Part shown: piece after piece, positions 6,346 to 36,800 of the stretch
Numbering within the stretch: position 1 is the stretch's first letter
Layout: every line of letters begins with the position of its first letter
Origin: Thermoplasmata archaeon
GTDB lineage: Archaea > Thermoplasmatota > DTKX01 > DATEUP01
Length of the DNA: 64,000 bases
Assembly (NCBI GenBank): GCA_041485285.1
Contig: JBGPJF010000001.1
Location: forward strand, 17,669-81,668
Direction of reading: 5' to 3'
Notes under the pieces: generated by a model
The model's database searches: none
Seen by the model: the letters and a program-made list of their open reading frames with translations, nothing else
What the model was told of the DNA's origin: nothing
Made by a program: the position numbers and the translations under genes

Positions 6346-6354
6346 GAATGCGGA

Positions 6355-6372: not shown

Positions 6373-6416
6373 CTAGGCTCGCTCCAAAAGACGGGAGAGC
6401 GGCCGTCGCGAGCCCC

Positions 6417-6857: not shown

Positions 6858-6933
6858 GTCCCGGCGCGCCGCGACGCCGGCAACGCCCGGGTCCTGCGCT
6901 GAACCTTCCGGCGACCGGTCTCCGCTGAGGCGC

Positions 6934-8229: not shown

Positions 8230-8615
8230 CCTCCTCAGTGGGGTTTTGAGGCTACGGCAGATAGAAAATGGTATTGTAGCAGGGTCGGCGAACCGGCCGC
8301 CATTCCGAGCGGAATGCGGGGAGGGGGGGAGCGCCTCCCAGGGTGGCCACCCGGGGGGGAGGGGGCCTTAACCCCGGCTTGTCGCGCCGGAGGGGACGAA
8401 AGGGGAGATCTCGCCGCGCGCAGGCGCCGATTCGGGGCGGCGCCGCGGTCCCAAAAAACTCCACCGGAAATGGAGGTTGGGGACCCGCCCGGATGCCATT
8501 GTCCGAATCCGGACAATTATGTCCAGGTGTTGATTCAATCAGAACATCACGTTTAACTCCTCAGCACCACTCGCCAACGCTTGCGCGTAAGATCAACGCG
8601 CGGAAACCCCAGGCA

Positions 8616-10926: not shown

Positions 10927-10941
10927 AGTAGGGGGTTTCAC

Positions 10942-11859
10942 ATGGCATCTGCAAAAGCGCGTGCACGCACGATGGAGAAGCTCAAGACGCTGCAGGTCGA
11001 GGTCGAGTACCCGCCGAGCGCCCGCCTCGAGATGCTGCGGGGCGAAACGGTCGTGGTCAAGTACGGGGGCCACGCGCTCCACGCCGGCGGCACCGCGGGG
11101 TTCGCCTCCGATGTTGCGTACCTCACGCGGGCCGGCGTCCGCGTCGTGGTGGTCCACGGCGGCGGCCCGGAGATCTCGCAAGAGATGGAGAAGGCCGGCA
11201 TCGAGCCCAACTTCGTGCACGGCCACCGCGTGACCGACGAGGCCACCCTGAAGATCGCCGAGCGCGTCCTTTCGGGCCGCGTCAACCGCGAGCTCGTGAC
11301 GGCCCTTGAGAAGGCAGGTTGCCGCGCGGTTGGCATTTCCGGCCGCGACGGGTCGCTCCTGCGCGCGAAGTACCGCAAGCCCAAGGTCAAAGACGGGGCG
11401 GGCCACGAAGTCCAGGTCAACCTGGGGTACGTAGGCGACATTGAGCGTGTGAACACGCGGCTCCTCCAGCTCCTCCAGGGCGGAGGCTACACGCCGGTGA
11501 TCGCGCCCATCGCCGTCACCGCCGGCGGCCAGTCACTCAACATCAACGCCGATTCGGTGGCAGGGGCCGTCGCCGGCGCGCTCAAGGCCACGACCTGCGT
11601 GTTCCTCACCGATGTTAAGGGCATCCTCGCAGACCCGGCCAAGCCCGAGACCCTGATGCCGGCCCTTCGCTACCGCGAGGCCGAAGCGCTGATTGCAAAG
11701 GGCGCCGTCTCCGGCGGGATGCTCCCCAAGGTCCAAGCCTGCCTCGAAGCGCTCTCGCACGGCTCGCGCGAAGCGCGGATCGTCGATGGCCGCGAGGACC
11801 GCGCGCTGCTGAACGCGCTCCTTCCGGCCGAGCCCCGCGGCACGGCCGTGACGCCGTAG
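10942..11859 (+). CDS. argB: Acetylglutamate kinase
   Basis: VVVKYGGHAL...VVVHGGGPEI amino-acid-kinase motifs. Confidence 0.9.
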   Translation: MASAKARARTMEKLKTLQVEVEYPPSARLEMLRGETVVVKYGGHALHAGGTAGFASDVAYLTRAGVRVVVVHGGGPEISQEMEKAGIEPNFVHGHRVTDEATLKIAERVLSGRVNRELVTALEKAGCRAVGISGRDGSLLRAKYRKPKVKDGAGHEVQVNLGYVGDIERVNTRLLQLLQGGGYTPVIAPIAVTAGGQSLNINADSVAGAVAGALKATTCVFLTDVKGILADPAKPETLMPALRYREAEALIAKGAVSGGMLPKVQACLEALSHGSREARIVDGREDRALLNALLPAEPRGTAVTP

Positions 11860-11878
11860 CCGCCCTGAGGGGACTATC

Positions 11879-13129
11879 ATGAACAAAGCCGAAGCCACCC
11901 CAGCACCGCATTTGCCCGCGCACGCTCCGCCGGCAAGCGGCGACGCTCCGCTGATGCACAACTATTCCGCGCCCACGGTCACGATCGTCCGCGGCAGCGG
12001 GATGGAAGTCTTCGACGACGCGGGGGGGCGCTACCTCGACTTTATCGGCGGCATCGCCGTCGCGGCCACCGGCCACTGCCACCCCGCGGTCGTGGCGGCC
12101 ATCGCCTCGCAGGCGGGCACCCTCATCCACGTCTCGAACCTCTACGGCATCGAGCCGCAGCGCGAACTTGCGCGCCGGCTTGTGCCGAAGGCGGGCCAGG
12201 ACTTCCGCGCCTTTTTCTGCAACTCCGGCGCCGAGGCCAACGAGGCCGCGATCAAACTCGCCCGCAAGTGGGGCCACAAGCACGGCGTTGGCCAGGGCAC
12301 GATCATCTCGGCACTAAACTCGGTCCACGGGCGCACGCGGGCCACCCTCGCGGCCACCGCTCAGCCGAAGTACCAGCAAGGGTTCGAGCCGCTGCCCTCC
12401 GGGTTCAAGTACGTCCCCTACGACGACCTCGACGGGCTCGAGCAGGGGCTCACGCCCGATGTATCGGCGGTCCTGCTCGAACCGATCCAAGGCGAGGGCG
12501 GCGTGAAGGTGCCGGCCATCGGCTACCTGCGCCGCGTCCGCGAAATCTGCGACCGCGCCGGCGTGCTGCTCATCCTCGATGAAGTACAGACCGGCTGCGG
12601 GCGCACCGGGCGGTTCTTCGCCTACGAGCACGAGGGCATCACGCCGGACATCGTGACGCTCGCCAAGGCGCTCGGCTCGGGCGTGCCCATCGGCGCGTGC
12701 CTTGCCCGCGCCGATGTTGCGGAGGTCTTCCAGCCCGGCAGCCACGGCTCCACCTTCGGGGGCAACCCGCTCTCGTCAGCCGCCGCCCTTGCGACCCTCG
12801 ACGTCATCGAAGGCGAGCACCTGATCGAGCGCGCCGCATCCATCGGCACCCACCTCATGAATCACCTCGAGGCGCTCCGCGCTCACGACGCACGCATCCG
12901 CGAGGTCCGCGGCAAGGGCCTGCTCATCGGCGTCGAGTTCAGCGAGCCGATCGCCAAGGACCTTGTGAAGACCATGCTCGGCCTCGGGGTCCTTGCCAAC
13001 GCGACCTCGGAGCACGTGCTGCGCCTCGCCCCGCCGCTGATCATCACGCAAGCGCACGCCGACGCCTATGTCTCCGCGCTCAAGCAGGCGCTTTCCCTGA
13101 CTCCGGCCCTCAAGTCAGGCACTTGTTGA
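11879..13129 (+). CDS. argD: Acetylornithine aminotransferase (class III PLP)
   Basis: ...LLILDEVQTGCGRTGRFFA... PLP-lysine region, 416 aa. Confidence 0.85.
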   Translation: MNKAEATPAPHLPAHAPPASGDAPLMHNYSAPTVTIVRGSGMEVFDDAGGRYLDFIGGIAVAATGHCHPAVVAAIASQAGTLIHVSNLYGIEPQRELARRLVPKAGQDFRAFFCNSGAEANEAAIKLARKWGHKHGVGQGTIISALNSVHGRTRATLAATAQPKYQQGFEPLPSGFKYVPYDDLDGLEQGLTPDVSAVLLEPIQGEGGVKVPAIGYLRRVREICDRAGVLLILDEVQTGCGRTGRFFAYEHEGITPDIVTLAKALGSGVPIGACLARADVAEVFQPGSHGSTFGGNPLSSAAALATLDVIEGEHLIERAASIGTHLMNHLEALRAHDARIREVRGKGLLIGVEFSEPIAKDLVKTMLGLGVLANATSEHVLRLAPPLIITQAHADAYVSALKQALSLTPALKSGTC

Positions 13130-13781
13130 GCGCTTGGAAGGCGGGCATCATATCAGACTCAGAAACGAGGAAGATGGTATCGGTATGGCAGGACATGGCT
13201 TCATTCAGGTTGATGCCGCTCGATGCCAGCGCGCCCAGCAGGTAGGCGATCACGCCGGGCGTCTGCGCGATGTCGTCGGGGGAGGTCACGATCATCTCCA
13301 CCAGGCCGCGGGTCATCTGGATCACGTCGCGGCGCGACAGGATCTCGAGCATCTCCTCGACGATGACGTCGTCGCAGATCAGCGTCACGCCGTGCGAGCC
13401 CTGGACGATGCGGAACAGCCGGCCGGCCTCGAAGTACTTCGCCGTGATGCGGCCGAGTTCGCGCATGATGTCGTAGGAAGGGCGCACCGTGATGATCGCG
13501 ACCTTCGAGTGGATCTCGATCTTCGACTTTCGAAGCACGCCCTTGACGGCGGCCTCGCGGGCGCGGTAGCCCGGCGGCACGATGTAGCGGCGGCAGGCGA
13601 TGAGCGCGGCGTCCTGGCTCTCGACATCCGTCTCCTTGACGATCTTGCGCGACAGCGCGGAGAGGTTGATGAGGTCCATCTGGAGGCAGTCCCGGATGGA
13701 GGGGTGCGCGTCGATGAACTCGCGCGCCTTGTGCGCCGCCGTCTCTCGCCGAACGTCCTTCTTCTTCGCCACGCGTGCCAT
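13110..13781 (-). CDS. ACT-domain putative regulator of amino-acid metabolism (COG2150-like), embedded between argD and argG
   Basis: 223 aa with a basic N-terminus followed by ACT-like beta-alpha-beta-beta-alpha-beta segments. Convergent 20-bp overlap with the argD 3' end. Confidence 0.45.
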   Translation of the reverse strand: MARVAKKKDVRRETAAHKAREFIDAHPSIRDCLQMDLINLSALSRKIVKETDVESQDAALIACRRYIVPPGYRAREAAVKGVLRKSKIEIHSKVAIITVRPSYDIMRELGRITAKYFEAGRLFRIVQGSHGVTLICDDVIVEEMLEILSRRDVIQMTRGLVEMIVTSPDDIAQTPGVIAYLLGALASSGINLNEAMSCHTDTIFLVSESDMMPAFQALNKCLT

Positions 13782-13859
13782 GGGGGCCCCTCAGGGGTCG
13801 GACGCGGCGCGCCCTACATGTCCTTTTTGAGACACAACTGACCGAGGCGGGACAACACC

Positions 13860-15179
13860 ATGCAGCAAACGGGCAAGAAGAACGGCAAGAACAAGGGACC
13901 GCGCCAGAAGATCGTGCTCGCCTACAGCGGCGGGCTCGACACTTCGATCGCGATCCGGTGGCTTACGGACACCTACGAGGCGGACGTCGTGTGCGTGCTC
14001 GTGGACGTCGGCCAGCCCGCGGAAGGGTTCCAAGCGGCCCTAGCGAAGGCGAAGAAGATCGGCGCGGTCGCCGCCTACGGGATCGACGCGCGCGGGGAAT
14101 TTGCGGCCGATTACATCGCGCCCGCCATCTTTGCAAACGCAATGTACGAGAAGCACTACCCGCTTGCCACGGCGCTTGCGCGCCCGCTCATCGCGGCGAA
14201 GCTCGTCGAGATCGCGCGGAAGGAAAACTGCAACGCGGTCGCCCACGGCTGCACGGCCAAGGGCAACGACCAGGTGCGCTTCGAAGTTTCGATCCAGGCG
14301 CTTGCGCCCGACCTCAAGGTCATCGCGCCGGCCCGCGAGTGGATTTACACCCGCGAGGAAGGCATCCAGTGGGCCGAAGAGCGCGGCATCCCGGTGCCGA
14401 TCACGAAGAAGTCCCCCTACTCGGTCGACGAGAACCTCTGGGGCCGCTCGGCGGAGTCGGGCATCCTGGAGGACGCGAACCAAGAGCCGCCCGAGGACTG
14501 CTACGGGTGGAGCGTGTCGCAGGAGAAGGCGCCCGACAAAGCGCAGTACGTCACGGTCACCTTCCGCCAGGGGCTCCCGGTCGCCCTCGACGGCTCGAAG
14601 ATGGCGCTTGACGACCTCATCTCGAAGCTCAACGAGGTCGGCGGCAAGCACGGCGTGGGCCGCATCGACCACGTCGAGAACCGCCTCGTGGGCATCAAGA
14701 GCCGCGAGGTCTACGAAGCGCCGGCGGCGGTCATCCTCACGGAGGCGCACCGCCAGCTCGAGTCGATGGTGCTGCCGCGGGACCTCGTACACTTCAAGTA
14801 CGGCATCGAGGACCGCTTCGCCTCGCTCACCTACGACGGCCTGTGGTTCACGCCGCTGATGGCGTCGCTGCGCGCGTTTTTGGTGTCGAGCCAAGAGCGC
14901 GTGACGGGCGACATCCGCGTCAAGCTGCTGAAGGGGTCGGCGACGGTCGTCGGGCGCGCGTCGCCCTTTTCGATCTACGACACCTCGCTTGCGACCTACG
15001 GGGTGGGCGACCTGTTCAACCACGGATCGGCCCGCGGGTTCATCGACCTCTGGGGGCTTCCCACGCGCATCTACGCGAGCAAGGGCGGCGCCGGGCGGCC
15101 GAAGGTCCAGGTTACCGAAAAGGTTAGCCCGGGCCCCACGACTGCACCGCCGCGCGTAAGCGGGCGGGGCAAGCTGTGA
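13860..15179 (+). CDS. argG: Argininosuccinate synthase
   Basis: IVLAYSGGLDTS PP-loop and 439 aa. Confidence 0.9.
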   Translation: MQQTGKKNGKNKGPRQKIVLAYSGGLDTSIAIRWLTDTYEADVVCVLVDVGQPAEGFQAALAKAKKIGAVAAYGIDARGEFAADYIAPAIFANAMYEKHYPLATALARPLIAAKLVEIARKENCNAVAHGCTAKGNDQVRFEVSIQALAPDLKVIAPAREWIYTREEGIQWAEERGIPVPITKKSPYSVDENLWGRSAESGILEDANQEPPEDCYGWSVSQEKAPDKAQYVTVTFRQGLPVALDGSKMALDDLISKLNEVGGKHGVGRIDHVENRLVGIKSREVYEAPAAVILTEAHRQLESMVLPRDLVHFKYGIEDRFASLTYDGLWFTPLMASLRAFLVSSQERVTGDIRVKLLKGSATVVGRASPFSIYDTSLATYGVGDLFNHGSARGFIDLWGLPTRIYASKGGAGRPKVQVTEKVSPGPTTAPPRVSGRGKL

Positions 15180-20368: not shown

Positions 20369-22807
20369 GTGCCTCGAAGTCGCAAGCGGGGGCGGTTAGT
20401 GTGGGCCTCTTCCGTCCATTATCGGCCTGACGTTGGGCGAATGTTTATCACGCCTGCCCCCGAAACGGTGCCGAGTGGGGAAATGGTCCGCACTCCCCGA
20501 TGTCGAAAGCGCGTGTGGCGGGCCCTTTGGATTTCCGCCTTGCTTGTGGTTCCGCCCGTGGCCCTTGCGCCGAGTGCGGCCGCCATCGAAGCGCCGTTCC
20601 CCTGGACGCCCGTGGGGCGCGCGGACACCAGCAGCAACACCAGCCAGACGATGTTCGCCGATGTCGAGGTCGATGCTCGCGGCAATGCGTTCGCGGTGTG
20701 GCAACAGGAAGGCGACGACATGCCGACGAATTACTACTTCACATGGGGCCGCGCGCTCAACCGGACCTCGGGCCTTGGCCCGCCCATTAACTTCAGCGAG
20801 CCCGGGGCGGAGATGGAGTGGTATCCAGACCTCGCCATGGACCCTGGCGGGAATGCGACCGCATCCGCCTGGATGGGGACGGGCGGCAACGCCATGTTTC
20901 GTCGCTGTCCGCCTGCGTCTCCCTGCGAAAACGCAACGGCAATCCCTGCACCCGGTACCAACTGGGGAGCCGTGCGATTGGGGGCTGACGACTCCGGTGC
21001 TGTATTGGCCGTGTGGCCCGCTTTTGTTTCTACCGAGGATCACATCTACTCCAGCCGGTACGTGCCTGGCGCCGGATGGAGCAGCGTCGTGCGCATTGAT
21101 TCGCTTGGAGCTGACAGCACCTACCCGCAGCTCTCCGTGGCGCCTACCGGGAACGCCACCGCCGTGTGGATGCGGGCGGGGCAGTTTGGAGGCAACAAGA
21201 TGTGGGCCAACGAGTTCACCGTCGGCGGCGGCTGGGGCACTCCCGTTCAGGTGGGCACGACAGGCGGCTGGCAGGTAACGGTGGTCCGCGACCGCAACGA
21301 CAACTCGACCGTGGTGTGGCGAACGTACGATGTCCCCAACGGCACCAAACTCTACGCTGTCCGCCGCGAAGCCGGAGGGCCGTGGAGCGCCGAGGCGGCG
21401 ATCGAGGCGAGCGGCGCCCAGGATTCGTACATCCCGACGCTAGGGGCCGACGATGCGGGCCATGCGATCGCGCTGTGGACAAAGGGCAGCGTGATCTGGT
21501 CGAACCGTTACACCGCCGGCACCGGGTGGGGACAAGCCGTGCGGATGTCTCCCAACGGCTCGTGGGACTCCGCGGGCGGTCCATCGCTCGCCGTGGCGCC
21601 ATCAGGGGAGGCCGTCGGGCTGTGGGGGATGTACAACAACACCTCCCGCGCGCTCGAGGTACACGTCTATCGCCCGGGCAGCGGCTGGGGCCCCGCGCAC
21701 TTCCTCCTCAACACGACCAGCTACTACCTGAGTGGCACCGACATCGCGATCAACCGAAACCTCCAGGGTGCCATGGTCTGGACGCAAGGCGACAACAACG
21801 ACTGGGACGTCTACATGGCGACTTTCGACCTCACGGCGATTGCCGTTGCGATCGACACGCCCGCCAGCGGCACGGTTGTCGGCACGCCGACGGTGCCGGT
21901 GACCGGCCACGCGACGACGGGGGCAAATGTGTCGGTCAACGGGATCCAAGTGGCCGTCGATGAGAACGGCGCGTTCAGCCTCGTCCTCCCGCTACTTGCG
22001 GGCGCAAACGACATCGTGGCGGTCGCGAGCGACGCGTTCGGCGCCGTCGCGACGGATTCCGTGTCGGTCACGTTCGATGACCCCATCCCGGGCCTGCGAG
22101 ACGATTTGAACGAAACGCGCGATGCGATCGACAACCTCTCGGCCGACCTCAACGCAACGCGCGATGCCCTGCAAGCGGCGCGCGATGCCCTCAACGCCAC
22201 CCTCGCTGAACTTGCGGCCGCACAGGCGGAAGTGGCGGCGGCACAAGCCCAGGTTGCCGATCTGCAGGCGCAGGTTGCGGGGCTCGAGGCCAACTTGTCG
22301 GACCTCCAAGGGCAATTGGACGGCGCTCGCGCCGACCTTTCCAACGTGACCGCTCAGCTCGACGCGGCGGTCACGCAACTTTCGGAGATCACCGACGCCT
22401 TCAACGCGGCGCAGGCCCAGCTGGCGGCGGCGAACGCCACGATCGCGGCGCTCGGGCTCCAGGTCAATGCCTCTCGGCTGCAGGTGGAGGCGCTGCAGCG
22501 CGACCTTGACGCGCGTGCAGCGGCTGACGCCGAGCTCCTCGAGGAACTGAACGAAACGCGGACCTCTCTGCGCGCAGCCAACGACCAATTGAACGGCACC
22601 AACGCGCGGCTCTCTGATTCGGAGGAGGCCCTCGCCTCGATGCGGGCTGCCCAGGCCGGGATGACCCTCCTGCTCATCCTCGTGGCACTGGGGCTCGTCG
22701 CCACGATGGTGGTGCTCCAGCTGCGGTCTGAGCGGGAAATGCGCAAAGTGGTCGAACGGATCGGGGGCGAGGACCAACGGGGACCGCGGCCGCCGCGGCG
22801 GGGCTGA
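20369..22807 (+). CDS. Surface protein with signal/TM, 8 Trp-containing ~50-aa repeats, an Ig-like domain, a ~250-aa coiled coil rich in N-x-T/S, a C-terminal TM anchor and a basic tail
   Basis: Repeats such as GNAFAVWQQ / GNATASAWMG / GAVLAVWPA / GNATAVWMRA / NSTVVWRTY / GHAIALWTKG / GEAVGLWGMY / GAMVWTQGD. Coiled coil ...LNATRDALQAARDALNATLAELAAAQAEVAAAQAQVADLQAQV.... TM MTLLLILVALGLVATMVVL. Start uncertain (GTG 20369 or ATG near 20480). Confidence 0.7.
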   Translation: MPRSRKRGRLVWASSVHYRPDVGRMFITPAPETVPSGEMVRTPRCRKRVWRALWISALLVVPPVALAPSAAAIEAPFPWTPVGRADTSSNTSQTMFADVEVDARGNAFAVWQQEGDDMPTNYYFTWGRALNRTSGLGPPINFSEPGAEMEWYPDLAMDPGGNATASAWMGTGGNAMFRRCPPASPCENATAIPAPGTNWGAVRLGADDSGAVLAVWPAFVSTEDHIYSSRYVPGAGWSSVVRIDSLGADSTYPQLSVAPTGNATAVWMRAGQFGGNKMWANEFTVGGGWGTPVQVGTTGGWQVTVVRDRNDNSTVVWRTYDVPNGTKLYAVRREAGGPWSAEAAIEASGAQDSYIPTLGADDAGHAIALWTKGSVIWSNRYTAGTGWGQAVRMSPNGSWDSAGGPSLAVAPSGEAVGLWGMYNNTSRALEVHVYRPGSGWGPAHFLLNTTSYYLSGTDIAINRNLQGAMVWTQGDNNDWDVYMATFDLTAIAVAIDTPASGTVVGTPTVPVTGHATTGANVSVNGIQVAVDENGAFSLVLPLLAGANDIVAVASDAFGAVATDSVSVTFDDPIPGLRDDLNETRDAIDNLSADLNATRDALQAARDALNATLAELAAAQAEVAAAQAQVADLQAQVAGLEANLSDLQGQLDGARADLSNVTAQLDAAVTQLSEITDAFNAAQAQLAAANATIAALGLQVNASRLQVEALQRDLDARAAADAELLEELNETRTSLRAANDQLNGTNARLSDSEEALASMRAAQAGMTLLLILVALGLVATMVVLQLRSEREMRKVVERIGGEDQRGPRPPRRG

Positions 22808-22836
22808 CGCGGGCGGAGAGAGGGGGCCAACGAGAG

Positions 22837-25167
22837 GTGCCGACATCCGGACTCCGGCGCGACGCACGCGCACCGCGCCGGCCCGAGGCCTTCCTGCTTG
22901 CGGGCCTTTTGCTCGCCACCCTCGGAACCTCGTGGCTCCCTACGGCCTCAGCGAGCCCCCCCGGCTGGTTTGGCTTGGGCGTCGTGGACGCCGTTAACGG
23001 CTTTGCGGCGAAGAACCCTTTCCTGGTTTTTGACTCCGACGGGGACGCCTTTGCGTTCTGGGACGAGCAGTGGACGCTCGACATCCCGAGTTACGAATAT
23101 GCATGGGGCGCATCGTTCAACCGGACGACCGGTTGGGGAACGCGCGAGAACCTGACGACGGCCGCGGCCGAGATCGACTGGATGGATGCCGCCGCCGCCT
23201 GCCCCGACGGCAGTGTCGTGGCGGTGGGCGAAGGCGACGGCGTCCAGGCGCGCGTTTTCACACGGGCGGCCGGCTGGGGCACTTCCACCCACATCGGACA
23301 TGACGGCGCGTACGGCGGGCCGGAGGTCGTCTGCGACTCCACGGGGGTCGCGACGGCGGTTTGGGGCGAGTACGACGACCCCTATTCGTACGTGATGGTG
23401 TCCCGCTACTACCCCGCTTCCGGGTGGACCACCAAGACACGGATCTCTATCGCGAACGAGGACAGCGAGGACCCCTCGATCGCAGTCGATGGGGCCGGCA
23501 ACGTGACGGTTGCGTTTCACTCGTTCCCGGCCGTAGCCCAGGGGGTGTACGTGAGCCGTTTTAACGAGAGCGCGGGGTGGAGCGGGGCGGGTCTCATCGG
23601 GCCGGATGGAAACCTTTTCAGTAGCCTGCCGCGCGTCGTCGCCGACGCTTCGGGGAATGCAACCGTCGTGTGGCCCGGGTTCCTTGCGGGCGTTAACGGT
23701 ACGACCCTCATCACGGTGCGGTACCGTCCAAGCTTCGGTTGGTCGCCGCCCTTCGGGCCAGACCTCAACAGTGCGCAACCCGGACGCGTGGTGGACCTTG
23801 GGATCGACGGCGGGGGCAATGTCATCGCGCTCTGGGCTGTGGGGGACGACGTCTACACGGCCCGCCTCCCACCGGTCGGACCCTGGGGGCCCGCCCAGAA
23901 ACTCACGCGGTGGCCGGACCTCGACACGCGGTGGCCCCACCTTGCCGTCGCAGGAAACGGCGATGCGGTTGCGGTGTGGTCGGCGTATTGGAACAACACT
24001 TCAGGCGTCGAGATGGCGCGTTTTGACCCGGCCACAGGTTGGGGGGCCGCTGAGTACCTGGTAGAGACGACACCTTGGCGCGCCTTTTACCCGCGGGTTG
24101 CCGTCGGCGGCGGGGGACGCTTCGGCGTCACATGGCACCAGGGGAGCCCTTCCGATGTGTGGGCCACTTTCTTCGCCCCCCAAGCTCCGACGATCGTCAT
24201 TTGGGAGCCGCAACCCGGGGCCACGACCGACGTCCCGCGCGTGCGGGTATCAGGGTCCGTGACGAACGCGGCCCGCGTGGCGGTAAACGGGCTGCTCGTG
24301 GACGTCCAGCCCAACGGCACCTTTTCGCTCGTGGTTGCGCTGTCCCCAGGGAACAACACGATTACCGGAACGGCCTGGGACGCGCTTGGCCATGCCGCGA
24401 TCGCGTCGGTGGTCGTCCGATTCGACGACCCCGTGCCCGGCCTGGGTGATGCCCTCGAAGCGGCGCGCGCCGACCTTGCCAACCTGTCCGCGACCTTGAA
24501 TCGCACTGCAGACAAGCTTGCGGCCGCCGAACGGCAACTTGACGCGGCGTCGCTCGCTCTCATCGAAACGCGGGCCGATCTGAACGCAACGGCTGCCGAA
24601 CTCGACGCGGCCGAAGCCCGGCTTGGGGGCGCTGAAGGGGCGGTCAACAACCTCACGGGCGAACTTGTGGCCGCGGCGGAGGAGCTTGCGCGGGTCTGGG
24701 ACTCGCTCAACGGAACCAAGGCATCCCTTGCAACCGCCGAATCGGCGCTCGGGGGGCTCGCGGACGGCTTGGCCGCGGCCAATGCCACCCTGGTGGAACT
24801 GCGCGCGAGCTTTGACGCCCAACTTGCCGAGATGCAGACCTTGCAGGCCGCCATCGCGGTGCGCGCGGCGGCCGAGCAGCGCCTGCTCGACGACCTGAGG
24901 GCCATAGGGGACGAACTCCGAGGGGCCCGCGCGCAACTCAACGAAAGGGATGCCCGCCTTCAGAGCACGGAGACCTCGATGCGCGCCCTCGAAACCGCGC
25001 AGGGCGGCTTCTTCGAGGTCCTGATTGCCATGGCGGCTGGCCTCATGGTCGCGATGGCCGCGCTCCACCGGCGCCACGAGCGGAAGATGCGCCAGCTGTT
25101 CAGCACCTTTGCGCAGCGGACCGGCCCGGCGGCCGAACGGCCGCCTCAGGCGCGAAGGGGCCGGTAG
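22837..25167 (+). CDS. Paralog of the preceding gene with the same architecture: signal peptide, W-repeats, Ig-like domain, sequon-rich coiled coil, C-terminal TM
   Basis: Signal MPTSGLRRDARAPRRPEAFLLAGLLLATLG. Repeats GVATAVWGEY / GNATVVWPGF / GNVIALWAVGDD / GDAVAVWSAYW. Coiled coil ...LANLSATLNRTADKLAAAERQLDAAS.... TM VLIAMAAGLMVAMAAL. Confidence 0.7.
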   Translation: MPTSGLRRDARAPRRPEAFLLAGLLLATLGTSWLPTASASPPGWFGLGVVDAVNGFAAKNPFLVFDSDGDAFAFWDEQWTLDIPSYEYAWGASFNRTTGWGTRENLTTAAAEIDWMDAAAACPDGSVVAVGEGDGVQARVFTRAAGWGTSTHIGHDGAYGGPEVVCDSTGVATAVWGEYDDPYSYVMVSRYYPASGWTTKTRISIANEDSEDPSIAVDGAGNVTVAFHSFPAVAQGVYVSRFNESAGWSGAGLIGPDGNLFSSLPRVVADASGNATVVWPGFLAGVNGTTLITVRYRPSFGWSPPFGPDLNSAQPGRVVDLGIDGGGNVIALWAVGDDVYTARLPPVGPWGPAQKLTRWPDLDTRWPHLAVAGNGDAVAVWSAYWNNTSGVEMARFDPATGWGAAEYLVETTPWRAFYPRVAVGGGGRFGVTWHQGSPSDVWATFFAPQAPTIVIWEPQPGATTDVPRVRVSGSVTNAARVAVNGLLVDVQPNGTFSLVVALSPGNNTITGTAWDALGHAAIASVVVRFDDPVPGLGDALEAARADLANLSATLNRTADKLAAAERQLDAASLALIETRADLNATAAELDAAEARLGGAEGAVNNLTGELVAAAEELARVWDSLNGTKASLATAESALGGLADGLAAANATLVELRASFDAQLAEMQTLQAAIAVRAAAEQRLLDDLRAIGDELRGARAQLNERDARLQSTETSMRALETAQGGFFEVLIAMAAGLMVAMAALHRRHERKMRQLFSTFAQRTGPAAERPPQARRGR

Positions 25168-25234: not shown

Positions 25235-25768
25235 TTAGCCGCCCCCGCGTGGGCGCTTCGACCGGCTTGGCGTTACAATGATCGATTCGCCGGACACCTG
25301 CGCTTCGAGGACGTCCCCCGGCCGGGCGTTGAGTTTCTTCGTTGCGCCGCGGGGCAGGCGAATCACGACCTCTCGATCCGCCTTCCGGACGAATCCCTTT
25401 GGCACTAACCACCTCATTCCATCCGGTACTTCCACCCATTCGCCCTCAGGCAGCGCGTCGATGTCCGCCATCGAGCGGATGCGAACCTTCCTCATCGAAC
25501 CCTCCTCCCTCGGTGTCGCAGTAGGTGCTTTTCGCTGAATGTAGCCCGGCGTGCCGTCACGAGCTCGAAGGCGCTGGGGTCTTGTGCCGACTCCTGGAGA
25601 ACCCTTGAAAAGAGTCTTTCCATGAGTTCTGCCAATGATGGTCAAGCGACCGGCCGCCCAGCGCTGATATTGCTTGGACACGAGGACGGCGTAGACCTCT
25701 TCCTTGCTCACGCCGTGTTTTGCGATGTGGTCCATCGCCCGTTCCGTCCAGATCAGGTGTCGGCGCAC
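25235..25768 (-). CDS. In-frame fusion of a BrnT/DUF497-like toxin domain (N-terminal, GTG start) and an AbrB/SpoVT-like swapped-hairpin domain (C-terminal; internal ATG at 25495)
   Basis: N-terminal MRRHLIWTERAMDHIAKHGVSKEEVYAVL matches the DUF497 pattern W...KHGVS.EE. C-terminal ...REVVIRLPRGATKKLNARPGDVLEAQVSGESIIVTP is AbrB-like. No stop separates the two parts, unlike the downstream paralogous pair. Confidence 0.45.
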   Translation of the reverse strand: MRRHLIWTERAMDHIAKHGVSKEEVYAVLVSKQYQRWAAGRLTIIGRTHGKTLFKGSPGVGTRPQRLRARDGTPGYIQRKAPTATPREEGSMRKVRIRSMADIDALPEGEWVEVPDGMRWLVPKGFVRKADREVVIRLPRGATKKLNARPGDVLEAQVSGESIIVTPSRSKRPRGGG

Positions 25769-25913
25769 GCTGGTGCGCCGCGGCCGAAGCTGATGAGGGT
25801 TCCCTGAGGGTAATCGCTCGCCGTGCGATTATTCCGTGTTGGCGCATCCCACGCAATCACTTCGAGGCCCGGTAGCGATCGAAAACGCGCCGGTCGTCCA
25901 GCAATTGCGCGGG

Positions 25914-26180
25914 TCAAGGCCGAGCGGTCTGCTTGGTCTTCTTGCGGGGCGAGCGTTGCACGACGACAGCGCCGGCCTTGATGCGTGCACGCAGCACCTC
26001 ACCCTCCTTGGCGCGGAATTTCTTCCGGACATTTGCGGGAAGGGGCACCACGAGCTCGCGGCCCCGTACGTGAACCTTTTCGTCCACCCAGCGGAATTTG
26101 AGCCCTCCGACGACCTCCACCCATTCGCCCTCAGGAATGGCTCCGAGTTCCTCGACTCCGGGGCGGTAGAGGCGCTTCAT
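25914..26180 (-). CDS. AbrB/SpoVT-like domain protein (putative antitoxin), paralog of the C-terminal part of the previous ORF
   Basis: MKRLYRPGVEELGAIPEGEWVEVVGGLKFRWVDEKVHVRGRELVVPLPANVRKKFRAKEGEVLRARIKAGAVVV. Its ATG overlaps the upstream toxin stop as ATGA. Confidence 0.5.
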   Translation of the reverse strand: MKRLYRPGVEELGAIPEGEWVEVVGGLKFRWVDEKVHVRGRELVVPLPANVRKKFRAKEGEVLRARIKAGAVVVQRSPRKKTKQTARP

Positions 26181-26455
26181 TGGACTCCCTTCCCACGGCG
26201 GAGCAATAAGGCTTTCTCGGAAGGGTCTGCGGGCCTGCAGGTTCCGATCAGAAGAAGATTCGAGTTTGGTTCGGTTCGATGGAGGAACATCACTAGGTAA
26301 CGGCCGCGAATCCGGCCGATGATCATCACGCCCCCGGCGTGATTCCGCCAATAGAACCGCCCTGATCGGAGCAAATCGTCCACATCGACCTTCGTGACCG
26401 CGTGGCGCGCGATGTGCTCCTCGCCTTCGAGCGTCCACGCGATGTCGAACCACAC
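26177..26455 (-). CDS. BrnT/DUF497-like toxin
   Basis: MWFDIAWTLEGEEHIARHAVTKVDVDDLL...RYLVMFLHRTEPNSNLLLIGTCRPADPSEKALLLRRGKG has the DUF497 organisation. Confidence 0.5.
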   Translation of the reverse strand: MWFDIAWTLEGEEHIARHAVTKVDVDDLLRSGRFYWRNHAGGVMIIGRIRGRYLVMFLHRTEPNSNLLLIGTCRPADPSEKALLLRRGKGVQ

Positions 26456-26564
26456 GGAGCGGCGTGACTGGGCGCCATCTTGAATCTCTCGTGATGACCA
26501 TCACTTGCTCGCTGATCAATCGTGGAGCCAAGCGCGAGCCAAGCGCGAAGGCGCCTGCATGGCG

Positions 26565-29905: not shown

Positions 29906-31090
29906 GTGACCGTTGCCATATCCCTCGCCCGTCTCATGCCGTGGTCCCCGTTTGGCAAGAAAGCCGATGACCCTCGGCCCGCCGGGCCGACCGCCTACGC
30001 TTCGCTGCGAGAAAAGTGGCTCCTCGGCGAGGTGATCCGGCTCGCCGGCCCAGGCGAACAAGACTCGGTCATCGCGGTTCTGTTTGACAAGGCCGTTGGC
30101 GACGGCCACGTCACGTTTGTGGCCGCAGAGGATGGAACGGCGAGCATGTACACAAGCAGGGGTGGTGGGATTATTGGGTCGGGGCGCCACGCCTCAGCGG
30201 CAGCCGCAGCGCTTGGCCTCGTTGGCTGTGCCCAGAGTTATGTGAGCCTCTTGCCCCTCGCTAAGTCCTTCCCCCTCCCCCAGGCGCCGCGCGTTGCCTT
30301 CCACATCGTCACGCGCGGCGGGGTGCACTCAGCCGCTTTCGACCCTGGCGCGATGCGCAGCAGCCACCGCCTTTCGCCCCTCGAAACTGCGCGGGGAAAC
30401 CTCGTCACCCAGACGAGACTGCTCGACGAGCGCAGACAACGAGGGGCCCTCGGTCCACACGAAATCGATGCGCAGGTTTTTGCCGATGGCGGAATCTGCG
30501 TGCGCGTTCCGCCGGACCCGACCCCAACTTGGCTTACCGCAAACGGGCTGAAAGTGGTCCTTGCCATCGGACACGCAAACGGGGACCGTTTGGCCGTTCA
30601 CATCGAACCGGGGGACGAGAAGGCACAAGCGGGAGCGCTCCGAGCGATCGACGCAGCCGGGTACACGGGGGCGTTTTCCGAGGTGCCCAAGATGATCGGC
30701 TACAAGAATCGGATGGCGACCATTCACCACGCGGTCGAGAGCGCCCGCGCGGACATCGTTTTGGAGCAACTTGCCCTCGGCACGAGTATCGAAGCGCGCG
30801 ACGGCGACGGCTACACGCCCCTGTTGCTCGCCGCGATGCAAGGGCGGACGGCAATCTTCCAAGTCCTCGTGCAACGGCATGCCGACTTCCGTGCCCGCGA
30901 CCGGTTCCAGAACACCGCGTTAATCTACGCCGCGCAGGTCGGCGATGTGGGGATTGCCAGGCACCTGTACATCCTTGGTGCAGACCTGGGCGCAAAAGGC
31001 CAGAACGGCCTCACCGCGCTCCAAGTCGCCACGCAGTGCGGCCACCGCGAGGTGGCGCAGCTCTTGCAGGCCGTCAGCGCCAGCGAATAG
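29906..31090 (+). CDS. Ankyrin-repeat protein (3-4 C-terminal ANK repeats) with a ~270-aa N-terminal domain of unknown family
   Basis: ...DGDGYTPLLLAAMQGRTAIFQVLVQRHADFRARDRFQNTALIYAAQVGDVGIARHLYILGADLGAKGQNGLTALQVATQCGHREVAQLL has ANK consensus. Confidence 0.7.
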   Translation: MTVAISLARLMPWSPFGKKADDPRPAGPTAYASLREKWLLGEVIRLAGPGEQDSVIAVLFDKAVGDGHVTFVAAEDGTASMYTSRGGGIIGSGRHASAAAAALGLVGCAQSYVSLLPLAKSFPLPQAPRVAFHIVTRGGVHSAAFDPGAMRSSHRLSPLETARGNLVTQTRLLDERRQRGALGPHEIDAQVFADGGICVRVPPDPTPTWLTANGLKVVLAIGHANGDRLAVHIEPGDEKAQAGALRAIDAAGYTGAFSEVPKMIGYKNRMATIHHAVESARADIVLEQLALGTSIEARDGDGYTPLLLAAMQGRTAIFQVLVQRHADFRARDRFQNTALIYAAQVGDVGIARHLYILGADLGAKGQNGLTALQVATQCGHREVAQLLQAVSASE

Positions 31091-31151: not shown

Positions 31152-32849
31152 CTACTTCCTGCCCTTGCCCTTCTCCTCGCTGTCCTCAACGAGCGAGCCC
31201 GCCGCCGACAAGTTCCTCAGGATGTTCTTGACCTCGTCGTCCGAGAGCTTGCTTAGCACATTCTGGAGCTTCGACACGTCGATCCCCGCGTCGGTCGCGA
31301 GCGACGCGAGCCGCCCGAGGCTGCCCCCGCCGCCGCTTGCAACGCCGCGCACGAGTTGACCGAGCGACACGCCGGTCATCGACTCGAGCATCGCGCTGGC
31401 CTTCATGGCCCCTTGCGCGACGTTCTCGACGAGCCCCGCCGGCCCGCCGGCGCCGCCCATCATGATGAGCTTGTCCGTGCCCGCGAGCGGCTGGGCCATC
31501 TCGCGCACGATGCTCGGCAGGCCCTCGACCACGACCTGGAGTTTGGCCGCGTCCTGGTACCTCGACCAGGCCTCGGCCTTCTTCATCATGGCCGCGGCCG
31601 TCGCCGTCCCGGTCGCCTCGATGGCGGCGGCCTCGGAGAGACCCTTTGCCTTGATGATGTCGGCCTCCGCGAGACCGACCGCGCGCGTCTTGTCGCCGTC
31701 GGCGACCCCCGTCACGCGGATGATGTTCGCGTTGGCTTCTCCTTGGACCTGGATGACGTCGGCCTGCGCCTTCCCGCGCGCAAAGGTCGCGGAGGCCTCC
31801 CCGTTGGCGCGCAGCACGGTCGCGCGCTGGTCGCCCTCGGCAATGGTCGCCGCCCGGTCGGCCTCGGCTTTGGCCGGGACGCGGATTGTGGCTTCGACCT
31901 CCTTCGTCTTGCGCTCGATTTCCTTCTGCTGGAGGTCGATCTGCCGCTCCTTCTCCTTGATCTGGATGTTGACCTCGGCCTGGACGAGTTCCTGGCGCCG
32001 CACGCGGTCCTGCAGGTCGAAGGCGATCTCCTTGTTCGCGCGCTCAATTTCGACTTGCGCCTGGTACTGGTTGACCTTGACGTCGCGCTCCCGCTGGGCC
32101 GCGGCAATCGCCGCGTCGGCCTCGAAGCGGGCCTGCTGCCCCTGCTTGTCGTAATCGGCCGACTTCTGGATCGCTTCCATGCGCGCCGCGGATTCGCCGA
32201 TGACGGCGTCACGCGTGGCGTTGGCCTGGCCGACCCGCGCGTCCCTTTGGACTTCGGCGGTGCGCCGCTTGCCGAGCGCTTCGAGGTACCCTTGCGTGTC
32301 GCTGATGTCCTTGACCTGGAGCGAGATGATTTCGAGCCCCATGTTGCCAAGCTCGGGCACCGCGACTTCGCGGATCTTGCTTGCCAGCGTCTCGCGGTCG
32401 GCGTTGATCTGCTCGACTTCGAGGGTCGCGCACACGCCGCGGACCTGGCCGATGATCGTGGCCTCCGCGAGCTGGCCCACGCCCTCGCGGGTCTTGCCAA
32501 GCAGCTGCACCGAGGCGACGTTGAGCTTCGTCTTCTCGTTCGAGATCTTGATCTGCGCGACGCACTCGACCGTGAGGGGCACCCCCGAGTGGGTGATGAC
32601 CGCCGGGACGTGGATTTCGAGCGTCTGCAGCGAGAGGTCGAGGTACGCGACTTGCTCGACGATGGGGTAGACGAATTTGCCGCCGCCTTGGATGACCTCG
32701 AACCCGATGTCCTTCCTCCGGCGCCCGAACACGACCATGGCTTGGTTCGGGGGGACGCGCTTGTAGCGCCGGGCGTAGATCACGAAGCCTGCAATTACAA
32801 TCACGATTACAGCCACAAACACAATCGGAAGAATTTCTTCGCCAGCCAT
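31152..32849 (-). CDS. Flotillin / SPFH (band-7) family protein
   Basis: N-terminal TM, SPFH domain, and a long Ala/Glu-rich coiled coil (EA repeats). ATG at 32849 (MAGEEILPIV). Confidence 0.85.
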   Translation of the reverse strand: MAGEEILPIVFVAVIVIVIAGFVIYARRYKRVPPNQAMVVFGRRRKDIGFEVIQGGGKFVYPIVEQVAYLDLSLQTLEIHVPAVITHSGVPLTVECVAQIKISNEKTKLNVASVQLLGKTREGVGQLAEATIIGQVRGVCATLEVEQINADRETLASKIREVAVPELGNMGLEIISLQVKDISDTQGYLEALGKRRTAEVQRDARVGQANATRDAVIGESAARMEAIQKSADYDKQGQQARFEADAAIAAAQRERDVKVNQYQAQVEIERANKEIAFDLQDRVRRQELVQAEVNIQIKEKERQIDLQQKEIERKTKEVEATIRVPAKAEADRAATIAEGDQRATVLRANGEASATFARGKAQADVIQVQGEANANIIRVTGVADGDKTRAVGLAEADIIKAKGLSEAAAIEATGTATAAAMMKKAEAWSRYQDAAKLQVVVEGLPSIVREMAQPLAGTDKLIMMGGAGGPAGLVENVAQGAMKASAMLESMTGVSLGQLVRGVASGGGGSLGRLASLATDAGIDVSKLQNVLSKLSDDEVKNILRNLSAAGSLVEDSEEKGKGRK

Positions 32850-32853
32850 GGTT

Positions 32854-33456
32854 TCACACTCCAGTCTTGTTTGGTTCCTTGAGTTCTTCAACAAGTGCGA
32901 TGGATTCCTGGATCCGCGTGATCAGCACCGTGGTGCCGACCCCCAACCTGCCGCCTTGGGCCCGCGCGCTCACCGACTGGCGGATGCCGCGCACGGAGAA
33001 CGAGACCGCGCCGATGCCCCCCTCGGGGATGGCTTCCGTGACGGTCGCCACTTTTCCTTCATACTCCTTTTCATGGATGGTTGACGATGCCTGGGACTTC
33101 ACGAGGAAGTTCGCCACGACCAAGAACAGGCCGGCGAAGGCAACGACGCCCGTGACGACCGCGGTGATGGCCGTCAGGAGGGGGTCCCATCCGCCAAACG
33201 AAAGGGCGGTCCCCACAGCGCCAGTGACTCCCATGAAAGTAGATATCATCGGCATGGAGAGCGGCGACAGCCCGGATGAGTCGGCCGCCCCAAGGTCGTG
33301 GCCCAAGCCCCCAACATCTCCGCCCACATCTCCGCCGACGTCACCTCCGACATCGCCGGTGTCGCCACCCGACCCTCCGATGAGGGCAAACAGGAGGAAG
33401 ACGATGCCCGCGAGCATCATGCCGATGTAGATGTACGCATCCGCGGAAATTGCCAT
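32854..33456 (-). CDS. NfeD-like membrane protein with a C-terminal OB-fold (flotillin partner)
   Basis: TM segments and a C-terminal ...VATVTEAIPEGGIGAVSFSVRGIRQSVSARA OB-fold. A (GGDV)4 low-complexity tract. Stop lies 4 bp before the flotillin start. Confidence 0.7.
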   Translation of the reverse strand: MAISADAYIYIGMMLAGIVFLLFALIGGSGGDTGDVGGDVGGDVGGDVGGLGHDLGAADSSGLSPLSMPMISTFMGVTGAVGTALSFGGWDPLLTAITAVVTGVVAFAGLFLVVANFLVKSQASSTIHEKEYEGKVATVTEAIPEGGIGAVSFSVRGIRQSVSARAQGGRLGVGTTVLITRIQESIALVEELKEPNKTGV

Positions 33457-33821: not shown

Positions 33822-36800
33822 ATGCGCGCTCCCGTGGCCATGTCTGGCAGGCAACGCGCGCGGTGTGTGTCTCTGGCCGTGCTGATGTTTATGGGGGCGC
33901 TCCTGCCGGCCTTGCCGGCGGCGCTGGGGGCGACGCTTGCCGACAACGTGCCGTTTCTTGACTCCCTGGACAGCGGCAACCAGCAGGACGACCACTCCTT
34001 CAACGTCTCGACGGGCACCTGGGCGGCCCTCGGCACGCTCGTCTACGACCAGGCAGGCAACACGGGCGACCTGCGCAGCGAATTGCGGCAGGGGTCCACG
34101 GCCGGCGCGATGATCGCGTCCGACTCCGCGGGCGACGTCGACTCGACATCGCGCCTCTCCGTGCTGGCGGTGAACGGCTTCGGCCTCGGCTCGGGGGCGA
34201 CCTTCTGGGCCTCCGAGGTGCTCCTCAATGACGCGCCTTCGTACGCGGTCGAGTTCGAGGGCACGCCGACCGTGATGTTCGCCAACCCCTACATCGACAG
34301 CTCGTCGATCGGCGCTAGCGGCGTCCTCCAAGCCTACCAGGTGTTCCTCAACAAGCGCGACACGCTGGACATCCGCCTCGCCGTGCCGAGCACGTACACC
34401 TACAACTACAATCTCCAGCTCTTCCTCTTCGGCGGCAGCAGTTCAAACTTCTACAGTGCTGCCGGGGTCGGGACAAGCGGCCCTGCCGCGCAGTCGGGCG
34501 GCCCCGACAACTCCGACCAGTACCTCCGTTACACCGCGCCCGTGTCGGGGTGGTTCTTGCTCCTCATTGGCAACACGCGCGAACTTGCCAATGTCCCGTA
34601 CACGCTCACCGTCTACACCAACGGCAAGGCCCTTGCCGACACCCAGCCCGACGGCGGCACGGTCGACAGCTGGAACACGAACGACGACTTCGCGTTTGCA
34701 AACCCCGCAAGCGACTGGGGCTTCGTCGCGCTGCGCAACGACAACGCCGGGTACGGCGAGTGGGTCACCGCCGAGATGCACTCCCCCACCTTCGACTCGA
34801 ACGTCCTTGCGTCGGAGAGCCCCGCGGCGGGGTCGGAGCGCGCAGGCGTCATTGCGGTCAACCGGAACGCGCCGAGTTCCGCCTCCAACACCTCGCTCAT
34901 CACGGTGAAGTGGGGGCCCTACGCGCTCTTCCCCGTGGCCTACACGCTCGAGATGGACAACCGCGTGCCGCTGCTCGCCTCGAGCGAGACGCCCGTCCGG
35001 ATGAATTTCAGCGCCGGGGAGATCCTGCGCGGCGGGGAGATCGCGCTTTCCGCCGGCCAGACCGTGGAGATCCACGTCGGCGTCGACCCGCTGTTCACCT
35101 ACCCCCACGAGCTCGAGCTCATCGTGTTCGCGCCGGGGTCGTCGTACTACTCGGGAAGCGGGACGGTCGGGACGGGGCCCGTCGCCTCGGCGCGCACCGG
35201 CGTGAACACCGCGCAGGACCTGACGTTCACCGCGAAGAGCACCGGCTACTACGGCGTCGCGGTGCTCTCGCTCAACTCGACCTACATGGTGCCCGTCGAT
35301 GTCACCGTGAAGATCCAAGGGGGGCTCCCGCTCGTGCACAATGACGTCCGCGTCGGCGTGCTCGACGACGGGAACCCCCAGGACCTGTTTGCATTCACGG
35401 TGGACTCCGGTCGGTGGGGCGTCCTCGCGGGCCGGTTCCTCGCCGGCACGGGCGCCTACAAGCAGCAGATTACCACCGGCGGCTTCGACGGCACGCCGGT
35501 CGCCTCGGACACCCTCGGCGCGAGCGCGGCCCTGCCGACGTTCGCCTTCGAGGCCGTGAACGGGTACCGCCAGGCGCCGACGAACTACTACGCCTCGGTC
35601 GTCCGCGTCCAAAACGCGCCGATCTACATGGTCGAGTATGACGCGGCTCCTCTGCCGCTGCCGCGCAACGCCCGCACGAACGTCTCGGTGCCCGACGGCC
35701 AGATCGTGTCGGCCTACGAAGTGAACCTCAACGCTGGAGAGACGGTGGACTTCCGCATGCGCGTGGACGCCGGCTACTCGTACCCCTACAACCTCCAGCT
35801 CTTCCTGCTGGCCCCGGTGTTCCAAGTCTATTCGACTTCGGGCGCGCTTGCGCCTTCCGCTTACGGCGCCTCCGCGGGCACCGAATCGACGGAGCAGGAC
35901 CTGGTGGGCGTGGTGCCCTTCACGGGCAGCTACCTCGTCGTGCTCGCGAACCTGGGGAACCTCACCGAGGTCCCCGCCACCATCGATGTGCGCATCAACG
36001 GCGAGCCGCTCTCCGTCGGCGTCTCGGCCGTGTCCGACCTCAGCGCCGCGAACGCCCTGAATTACTACGCCTTCAGCGCGCCGCCGACCACCTGGACGGT
36101 CGCGGGCGTGAAGATCGGGTCGGCCTCGAAGCCGGCGGACACGCTCGTCCACAGCCTCCACGGCCCGACCCCCGACTCGAACGCGCTTGCCACCGACCGC
36201 GTCCGCGGGATCGGCGCCGAGGGGATCATCGCCATCGACGGGTTCGCGCAGTCCACGAATGCGTCGTACTTCCTCTCGGAGGAGTCGGCGCTCCAGGGCG
36301 CCAACACGATGACCTTCCAGGTGCAGATTGCGACGAGCTTCGTCGGCATCAACACCGTATCGCAGGTCGTGAGCGGCTCGCTGCCGGCCTCGTCGCAGTT
36401 CGTCGGGTTCCAGATCAACCTGAACGCGGGGCAAACGCTTGACCTGCGCCTGCGGCGCGCTGAAGGGTACTCGTACCCCTACTCGCTCGGGCTCCTCGTG
36501 TTCCGCCCGGGTTCGGGCAATGCCTCCTCGTCGGGCGAAGGCGGGGGCGCGCCGATGGTGTCGTCGGCCAACGGCCCGTCGGTCGAGCAGGACGGCATCT
36601 TCACCGCGACGACCACCGGCGTCCACCTCATCCTGGTCGTCAACCTCGACACCCCGCGCGACATCGCGTACGGCCTGAACCTCACGGTCGACGGGTGGCC
36701 GATCGCGAGCGACACGCACATCGCGGGCGACCTGAACTCCTACAACCGCGCCGACCAGTACAACTTCCAGACCGCGGGCGGCGCGTGGACGGCCGCGGGC

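Follow-up and report, generated by a model that had tools for sequence, protein, structure and literature searches.

A 64,000-nucleotide stretch of the genome of a Thermoplasmata archaeon (assembly GCA_041485285.1, contig JBGPJF010000001.1, positions 17,669 to 81,668; this whole stretch is "the window" below, and positions in it are counted from its first nucleotide) carries two adjacent genes, which we call p1 and p2. Their protein products consist, in order, of a signal peptide, an eight-bladed β-propeller head, an immunoglobulin (Ig)-like domain, a long heptad-repeat coiled-coil stalk and a single C-terminal transmembrane (TM) helix followed by a basic tail. On balance, and with some reservations that are given below, we favor the view that these are rapidly diversifying type-I surface glycoproteins, envelope spikes or adhesins that help to build the outer protein coat of the cell. 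They are an uncharacterised variant among the stalked, glycosylated archaeal surface proteins, which are an established kind, and nothing in p1 or p2 contradicts the current understanding of such proteins.

Both open reading frames (ORFs) are present where a preliminary description of this DNA had placed them (Table 1), and its view that they are tandem paralogs with diverged heads is correct. The two proteins are 33% identical across 722 aligned residues (E 9e-98; head 30%, Ig-like domain 44%, stalk 35%), and their alignment is free of gaps over the 297 columns that make up the Ig domain, stalk and TM helix. The G+C content of the window is about 66%, and the idea that these are spurious ORFs in GC-rich DNA was ruled out by the homology and structure results described below. 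Copies of the locus that are identical or 98% identical are present in Logan and Joint Genome Institute (JGI) assemblies, and p2 is called as the same gene on these independent Logan and JGI contigs. In one 98%-identical copy (L076, JGI 3300052987, positions 6922–9332 of that contig) the gene call for p1 gives a truncated protein of 443 AAs under the JGI name "predicted nucleic acid-binding Zn-ribbon protein", a name that looks like an artefact of coiled-coil similarity. The real start of p1 is probably not the GTG at 20369 but the ATG at 20483 (M39, with GGGG upstream) or the ATG at 20441 (M25); the latter was chosen by the gene caller on the identical contigs, and either one still yields a typical signal peptide. 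In the AlphaFold2 model the p1 N-terminus is a short helix followed by disorder. Neither signal peptide has a lipobox cysteine. The 29-nucleotide spacing of the two genes, with the Shine-Dalgarno-like GGAGAGAGGGGG ahead of p2, suggests that p1 and p2 are probably co-transcribed.

The heads are built of eight units of about 52 residues with the consensus P..A.D..GNA.AVW.Q.DG....IWANRY..G.GWG.A..IE, which was derived from an alignment with 62 homologs. AlphaFold2 models the p2 head as an all-β structure with eight four-stranded blades in a closed ring, that is, as an eight-bladed β-propeller (predicted local distance difference test score, pLDDT, 91; predicted template modelling score, pTM, 0.92), and it models the p1 head and Ig domain at a pLDDT of about 90. 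The earlier proposal of about eight repeats of about 50 AAs, possibly forming an eight-bladed propeller, is thus well supported. The final head repeat has no strand beyond its third, and a GW strand opens the mature protein; because the last repeat ends in this way, the N-terminal GW strand of p2 probably completes blade 8 in the model and closes the ring in the manner of a velcro. A head family profile (p1 and p2 were included in its building) matches p1 with E 6e-97 and p2 with E 3e-94, and it matches no other ORF in the window.

Neither head has a match in Pfam or NCBIfam, and a WD40 or Kelch identity was dropped when the Pfam search gave no such profile match. The preliminary description could not assign the repeat to a named family; it is right that no Pfam model covers it, but the repeat is far from an orphan. 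The p2 head, used as a query, retrieved 126 proteins (all labelled hypothetical, the top match being only 30% identical) in which the head is joined to Big_5, PKD, Ig or Glucodextran_B domains, and a full-library search with the head profile found 78,227 cluster representatives (clustered at 50% identity) at E ≤1e-3 in bacteria and archaea, of which 15,859 match at E ≤1e-30. The family includes giant proteins that bear many copies of the domain. A scan of the genome collection with p2 alone gave no confirmed relative. The blades of p1 and p2 are only 14–17% identical to one another within each head, compared to about 51% in the homolog P0017. The p1/p2 head is thus not rare but an outlying member of a propeller family that is very large and has been neither named nor characterised, and the distribution of homologs that the preliminary description had proposed as a check goes against rarity.

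Among named families, those closest in sequence to the head repeat are NCBIfam NF053835 ("PDIAV motif-containing lipoprotein") and Pfam PF15892 (BNR_4). The former recognises cleaner homologs (P0003 at E 2e-18 and P0017 at E 1e-10), although all of the homolog scores obtained, 29–67 bits, fall below its cut-off of 90 bits, and only the homolog P0003 passes for BNR_4 (35.2 bits against a cut-off of 27.3). The p1 and p2 proteins themselves match neither model at E values up to 1 and, being TM-anchored archaeal proteins without a lipobox cysteine, they are not lipoproteins like those for which NF053835 is named. Judging by the family name, the PDIAV motif would correspond to P-x-(V/I)-A-V-D, the strand with which each blade begins; a literature search gave nothing relevant on "PDIAV", and for neither NF053835 nor BNR_4 has a function been demonstrated that would carry over to p1 and p2. 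In the PDB the head profile found marginal matches only, namely 4irt (E 0.0035), which is an uncharacterized protein, and the GH145 entry 5mum (E 0.015). The leading Foldseek matches of the p1 model are sialidases, PLL-family lectins, CylK, GH145 and PL42, with identities of 8–16%.

The Ig-like β domain noted earlier is certainly present, but it belongs to a known Pfam family, PF09136 (Glucodextran_B); the scores of both proteins (Table 1) are above the curated gathering cut-off of 27 bits, and those of the homologs are 39–58 bits. It is followed by a hinge, (F/Y)-x-D-P-(V/I)-P-G-L, that is conserved in p1, p2 and their homologs. From the hinge to the TM helix there are exactly 188 residues in each protein, so the heptad-like character that had been described holds, while the length of about 250 residues given for it was too great. 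A single heptad register runs unbroken over 27 heptads in both stalks, with Leu in position a in 17/27 and 20/27 heptads of the two stalks and Leu, Ala or Thr in position d, and positions a and d are the best conserved between p1 and p2 (15/27 and 13/27, respectively). The hydrophobic power at a period of 3.5 residues is 96 in p1 and 95 in p2 (shuffled sequences average about 9 and peak at 50–63), and at a period of 3.67 it is at the background level (9.1 and 17.0, respectively), as it is at 3.6. An undecad, right-handed coiled coil was excluded by this periodicity. AlphaFold2 predicts residues 576–748 of p1 to be one continuous helix of 173 residues (pLDDT 60–83) followed by the TM helix, in agreement with the extended helix that had been expected. 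The 188 stalk residues, which at 0.148 nm per residue would span about 27 nm, include no proline and no obvious central turn, and 26% of them are Ala. A PDB sequence search with the Ig-stalk-TM part found nothing beyond coiled-coil matches of a generic kind, SMC and phage gp26 among them. The single C-terminal TM helix and basic tail described earlier are present in both proteins.

The description of the stalk as studded with sequons is also fully justified when the counts are compared with a composition-based expectation from 2000 shuffles. Across the whole proteins there are 23 sequons in p1 (5.3 expected) and 16 in p2 (3.3 expected), and in the stalks alone 10 (1.4 expected) and 6 (0.8 expected), an enrichment of 4–7 times over composition that is reached in none of the 2000 shuffles in any of the four cases. 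Of all Asn residues 56–57% lie within sequons, and in the stalk 75–77% do so (again 0/2000 shuffles match); the cytoplasmic proteins IleRS, ArgG and ArgH encoded in the same window have no sequons at all. Nine sequon positions are common to p1 and p2. The sequon Asn residues of the two stalks occupy heptad positions b, c, e or g and never a, d or f, and among 31 sequon Asn residues in eight homolog stalks 15 are at g, 11 at b, 3 at c and 2 at e, with 0/31 at a, d or f. The absence from f presumably reflects the fact that the S/T would then land on position a, which is strictly Leu. In two recurring motifs, L-N-x-T occupies positions a-b-c-d and N-L-S/T occupies g-a-b. In exported archaeal proteins N-x-S/T sequons are the substrate of AglB, and the saturation with sequons suggests a coat of glycans along stalk and head, so p1 and p2 are probably heavily glycosylated. 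Sequons built into the heptad in this way make these stalks a clear example of a coiled coil that has apparently been shaped for carrying N-glycans.

The window comes from a sparsely sampled Thermoplasmatota lineage, since its prolyl-tRNA synthetase has close relatives at 78–95% identity and its named relatives (54–58% identity) are all from Thermoplasmata, Thermoplasmatota, Methanomassiliicoccales or "Euryarchaeota" archaea. The full architecture of p1 and p2 recurs in proteins from many Thermoplasmatota metagenome-assembled genomes (MAGs), with stalks of 39–188 residues among which those of p1 and p2 are the longest found; among the best 120 head matches only 13 have a C-terminal TM helix, and the remainder lack it and have other accessory domains. 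This recurrence makes p1 and p2 members of an uncharacterised family and not a one-off system. The claim that they form an undescribed surface system stands insofar as the family is uncharacterised (our literature searches turned up no description of a Thermoplasmatota propeller/coiled-coil surface protein), but the rarity was overstated. Paralogs are often clustered: assembly GCA_041499475.1 and one JGI contig each have three within 22 kb, among toxin-antitoxin-like and accessory genes, and the stalks of these clustered paralogs are of unequal length (69/110/169 residues and 108/124/148 residues). The homolog P0040 lies inside a glycosylation-type gene cluster (L005, GCA_040751795.1, positions 5130–15022) with genes for glycosyltransferases (one GT4 and two GT2), a DegT aminotransferase, a hexapeptide acetyltransferase, an NTP-transferase and a UDP-sugar dehydrogenase, and this cluster may be a glycosylation pathway for the propeller-stalk family.

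A syntenic locus of a related organism, L075, has the gene order argD, ACT-domain gene, argG, argH, small unannotated gene, WD40-PKD gene, propeller-stalk gene (P0398) and DUF35, and so carries only one member of the family. The P0398 stalk has 163 residues and the same periodicity as those of p1 and p2 (power 100.7 at 3.5 and 2.8 at 3.67). The flanking genes of the two loci are 79–88% identical and the WD40-PKD proteins 59%, but P0398 is only 29–32% identical to p1 and p2; it follows that the propeller-stalk family either outpaces the surrounding genes in its evolution by a wide margin or has its members exchanged for divergent copies. The tandem p1-p2 pair is specific to the lineage of the window.

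In the arrangement that we favor, each chain would be exported by the Sec pathway with cleavage of its signal peptide and then be held in the membrane by its C-terminal helix, with the N-terminus outside. The 27 heptads would pair with those of other chains as a parallel, left-handed coiled coil to make a rigid stalk of about 27 nm; the guess that there are three strands is made by analogy with the Sulfolobus protein SlaB (below). N-glycans would be attached to Asn residues at the core-flanking positions b, c, e and g, and the stalk would lift the Ig-like domain and the propeller off the membrane, the propeller being a ligand-binding or contact-making tip. Fast diversification is what would be expected of molecules that are exposed to viruses, partners or substrates, and the fast divergence together with the paralog arrays points to an exposed, interacting molecule, of which an adhesin, a lectin, an envelope spike or a surface that faces viruses would be examples. 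Several observations weigh against this assignment. The two proteins diverge within their own family, their blades being only 14–17% identical to one another; the structural neighbours of the head cover enzymes (sialidases, GH145, PL42 and CylK) in addition to lectins; no ligand or binding site was recognised in the head, whose conserved positions repeat in every blade and may be purely structural; and the small residues at position d (Ala and Thr) are typical also of antiparallel "Alacoil" packing.

The stalked topology of p1 and p2 also fits known stalked S-layer anchors (PMC10903991, PMC6555900), and they might accordingly be true S-layer proteins, with the stalks as pillars beneath a regularly tiled canopy of propeller and Ig heads, as in tetrabrachion or SlaA/SlaB. 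The equal stalks of 188 residues, gap-free over 297 columns, are what would be expected for heads held at one height, and the glycosylation gene cluster around P0040 is in keeping with the idea. We nevertheless think it unlikely, because paralogs in other genomes have stalks of 69/110/169 or 108/124/148 residues, a misfit with a lattice of a single height, because the syntenic relative has one gene with a stalk of 163 residues, because the gene diverges far faster than its neighbours, and because cultured Thermoplasmatales have an unordered layer of about 20 nm and not a lattice (PMC12448462). The equality of the two stalks could have another meaning, which is a variant of the spike or adhesin reading: p1 and p2 may form an obligate hetero-oligomer within one stalk. 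Their genes are 29 nucleotides apart with a Shine-Dalgarno-like element between them, there are no insertions or deletions over the Ig, stalk and TM regions at 35–44% identity in a family whose stalks vary from 39 to 188 residues, and the core positions a and d are those best conserved between them (15/27 and 13/27). We give this variant a modest chance, somewhat better than that of the regular canopy, since the syntenic relative makes do with a single gene, the paralogs of other genomes have unequal stalks, and equal length could merely mirror a shared constraint on height.

The propeller could instead be a displayed carbohydrate-active enzyme, similar to the sialidases, BNR_4 proteins, GH145 or PL42, that the stalk presents to polymeric substrates. 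The score of P0003 above the BNR_4 cut-off, the marginal profile matches to 4irt and 5mum and the presence of sialidases, GH145 and PL42 among the top Foldseek matches are all in its favor. We consider it improbable, however, as p1 and p2 themselves have no BNR_4 match at E values up to 1, their sequence identity to such enzymes is only 8–14%, and the conservation recurs at equivalent positions of every blade, without any apparent catalytic residues that are peculiar to one blade; in addition, the head has eight blades, unlike the sialidases, which have six, and GH145 and PL42, which have seven. Finally, the long helix might be part of an antiparallel assembly, formed by a hairpin or in trans between membranes, and act as a tether. 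Alacoils are antiparallel and are packed through small residues, and the frequent Ala and Thr at position d, in a stalk that is 26% Ala, are reminiscent of them; but the unbroken heptad register, the lack of proline and of any obvious central turn in 188 residues, the one straight helix given by AlphaFold2, and the placement of the head at the N-terminus and the TM helix at the C-terminus, which favors an extended parallel arrangement, make this a very improbable structure.

Table 1. Coordinates of p1, p2, their parts and the divergently transcribed neighbour in the window
Feature	Position	Strand	Remarks
Divergent neighbour, 970 AA	17399..20311	-	Signal peptide, WD40-type propeller, Ig-like/PKD domains, C-terminal TM helix, short basic tail
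p1, longest ORF	20369..22807	+	812 AA counted from GTG 20369
p1 signal peptide	20483..20584	+	MVRTPRCRKRVWRALWISALLVVPPVALAPSAAA; read from sequence
p1 eight-bladed β-propeller head, residues ~75–490	20591..21838	+	Blade 2 degenerate; alignment, AlphaFold2, profile
p1 Ig-like domain (PF09136 Glucodextran_B), residues 494–570	21848..22078	+	43.6 bits; AlphaFold2 pLDDT ~90
p1 DPIPGL hinge and 27-heptad coiled-coil stalk, residues 571–764, 10 N-x-S/T sequons	22079..22660	+	
p1 TM helix (residues ~765–787) and basic cytoplasmic tail	22661..22804	+	
p1-p2 spacer, 29 nucleotides	22808..22836	+	Purine-rich Shine-Dalgarno-like GGAGAGAGGGGG before p2 GTG
p2, paralog of p1	22837..25167	+	776 AA; GTG start
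p2 signal peptide, residues 1–39, ending ...LPTASA	22837..22953	+	Read from sequence
p2 eight-bladed β-propeller head, residues 40–447	22954..24177	+	Alignment, AlphaFold2
p2 Ig-like domain (PF09136 Glucodextran_B), residues 451–527	24187..24417	+	41.3 bits
p2 DPVPGL hinge and 27-heptad coiled-coil stalk, residues 531–724, 6 sequons	24427..25008	+	
p2 TM helix (residues ~725–747) and basic tail	25009..25164	+	

The neighbours of p1 and p2 are arg genes, the WD40-PKD-TM protein, small MazE/AbrB-like genes and a thiolase with DUF35. The 970-AA WD40-PKD-TM neighbour, whose position is conserved in L075, has 15 sequons (6.0 expected; one of 2000 shuffles reaches this number), and with p1 and p2 it makes a cluster of three surface glycoprotein genes. 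In L075 the propeller-stalk gene directly abuts DUF35, so the window has about 3.7 kb of extra DNA, namely p2 and the small genes. The latter (25235–26531, - strand), one of which is MazE/AbrB-like, lie between p2 and the DUF35-thiolase pair.

Farther away, the 723-AA protein encoded at 60942–63113 (- strand) combines a signal peptide with a Glucodextran_B Ig-like domain (31.5 bits), matches PKD weakly and has a hydrophobic segment at about residues 535–565. Two cytoplasmic domains of the DNA-binding winged-helix type (HTH_24, MarR-like) follow. The protein looks like a transcription regulator that spans the membrane and has an extracellular sensor that includes an Ig-like domain of the p1/p2 type. 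A large surface protein of 1384 AAs is encoded at 33822–37976 (+ strand), with a signal peptide, fn3, a C-terminal TM helix and a Lys/Pro-rich tail, and its sequons are not enriched (15 vs 11.9 expected). For the isoleucyl-tRNA synthetase (39019–42165, + strand) a pattern-based genome scan gave almost only bacterial loci (Actinomycetota, Chloroflexota and Patescibacteria, at 33–56% identity), the archaeal matches being to an uncultured archaeon (53%) and a Halobacteriales MAG (33%); the enzyme may be of a type shared with bacteria, or the result may reflect a bias of the search method. An ankyrin-repeat protein (29906–31090, + strand) adjoins a 580-AA SPFH/flotillin-like protein (31152–32894, - strand). 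Ankyrin repeats are uncommon in archaea.

Among propellers, the Photorhabdus PLL/PHL-type lectins and BP39L/CV39L are 10–16% identical to the p1/p2 head, and a profile search finds no sequence relationship between them; no sugar-binding residues could be mapped. These lectins have seven blades, compared to eight here. With respect to overall architecture, p1 and p2 have all of the features of stalked, membrane-anchored archaeal surface proteins (signal peptide, β-rich part, coiled coil and single C-terminal TM helix), and the preliminary description had likened them to tetrabrachion, the S-layer protein of Staphylothermus marinus. In tetrabrachion the stalk, a right-handed tetramer, measures 70 nm and splits into four arms of 24 nm (PMC6555900). 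The resemblance proves to be one of topology only: both would be surface glycoproteins with a C-terminally anchored coiled-coil stalk, parallel in tetrabrachion and, we infer, in p1 and p2, and with a β-rich distal part. On the other hand the p1/p2 stalk has a pure 3.5-residue periodicity (power about 96, compared to 9–17 at 3.67) and would be about 27 nm long, and the distal part is globular (propeller and Ig-like domain) with no branching arms, so that neither the 11-residue periodicity nor the approximately 70-nm, four-armed form of a tetrabrachion-type stalk is found here.

Because the stalk periodicity is heptad and not undecad, Sulfolobus SlaB is by analogy the closest functional counterpart rather than tetrabrachion. 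SlaB has three β-sandwich domains, a trimeric coiled coil of 132 residues and a TM helix, and 14 predicted sequons of which 6 are on the 132-residue helix (PMC10903991). It thus shares with p1 and p2 a β-sandwich or Ig-like N-terminal part, a long C-terminal coiled-coil helix, a single C-terminal TM helix and many sequons that extend along the helix. The differences are that p1 and p2 add an eight-bladed propeller at the tip and have a longer stalk (188 residues), that they are fast-evolving, multi-copy paralogs, and that they belong to the Thermoplasmatota rather than to the phylum of SlaB, the Thermoproteota. No Pfam, NCBIfam or PDB match pointed to SlaB, although no direct comparison with the SlaB sequence was made, and the p1/p2 locus has no SlaA-like canopy partner, that is, no large, secreted, β-rich protein without a membrane anchor.

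Cultured Thermoplasmatales have an unordered, dense protein layer of about 20 nm and no crystalline S-layer, and genome-wide searches in the same study found no S-layer-like genes and left the components of the layer unnamed (PMC12448462). A recurrent, multi-copy, sequon-saturated and membrane-anchored stalked family is a concrete candidate for a component of that layer. A bolder proposal, which we put forward as an unlikely speculation, is that the propeller-Ig-coiled-coil-TM family is a principal building block of the unordered exterior layer that takes the place of a crystalline S-layer in the Thermoplasmatota, a forest of glycosylated coiled-coil stalks of genetically tunable height (39–188 residues) with lectin-like eight-bladed propellers as tips, diversified through paralog arrays to escape viruses or bind partners. 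If true, this would be a distinct archaeal solution to the problem of the envelope, and a propeller superfamily of about 78,000 clusters without a Pfam model would gain its first function. Since that family is very large, lies outside the Pfam models and is uncharacterised, any function found for the head would transfer widely, including to the giant bacterial surface proteins that bear many copies of the domain.

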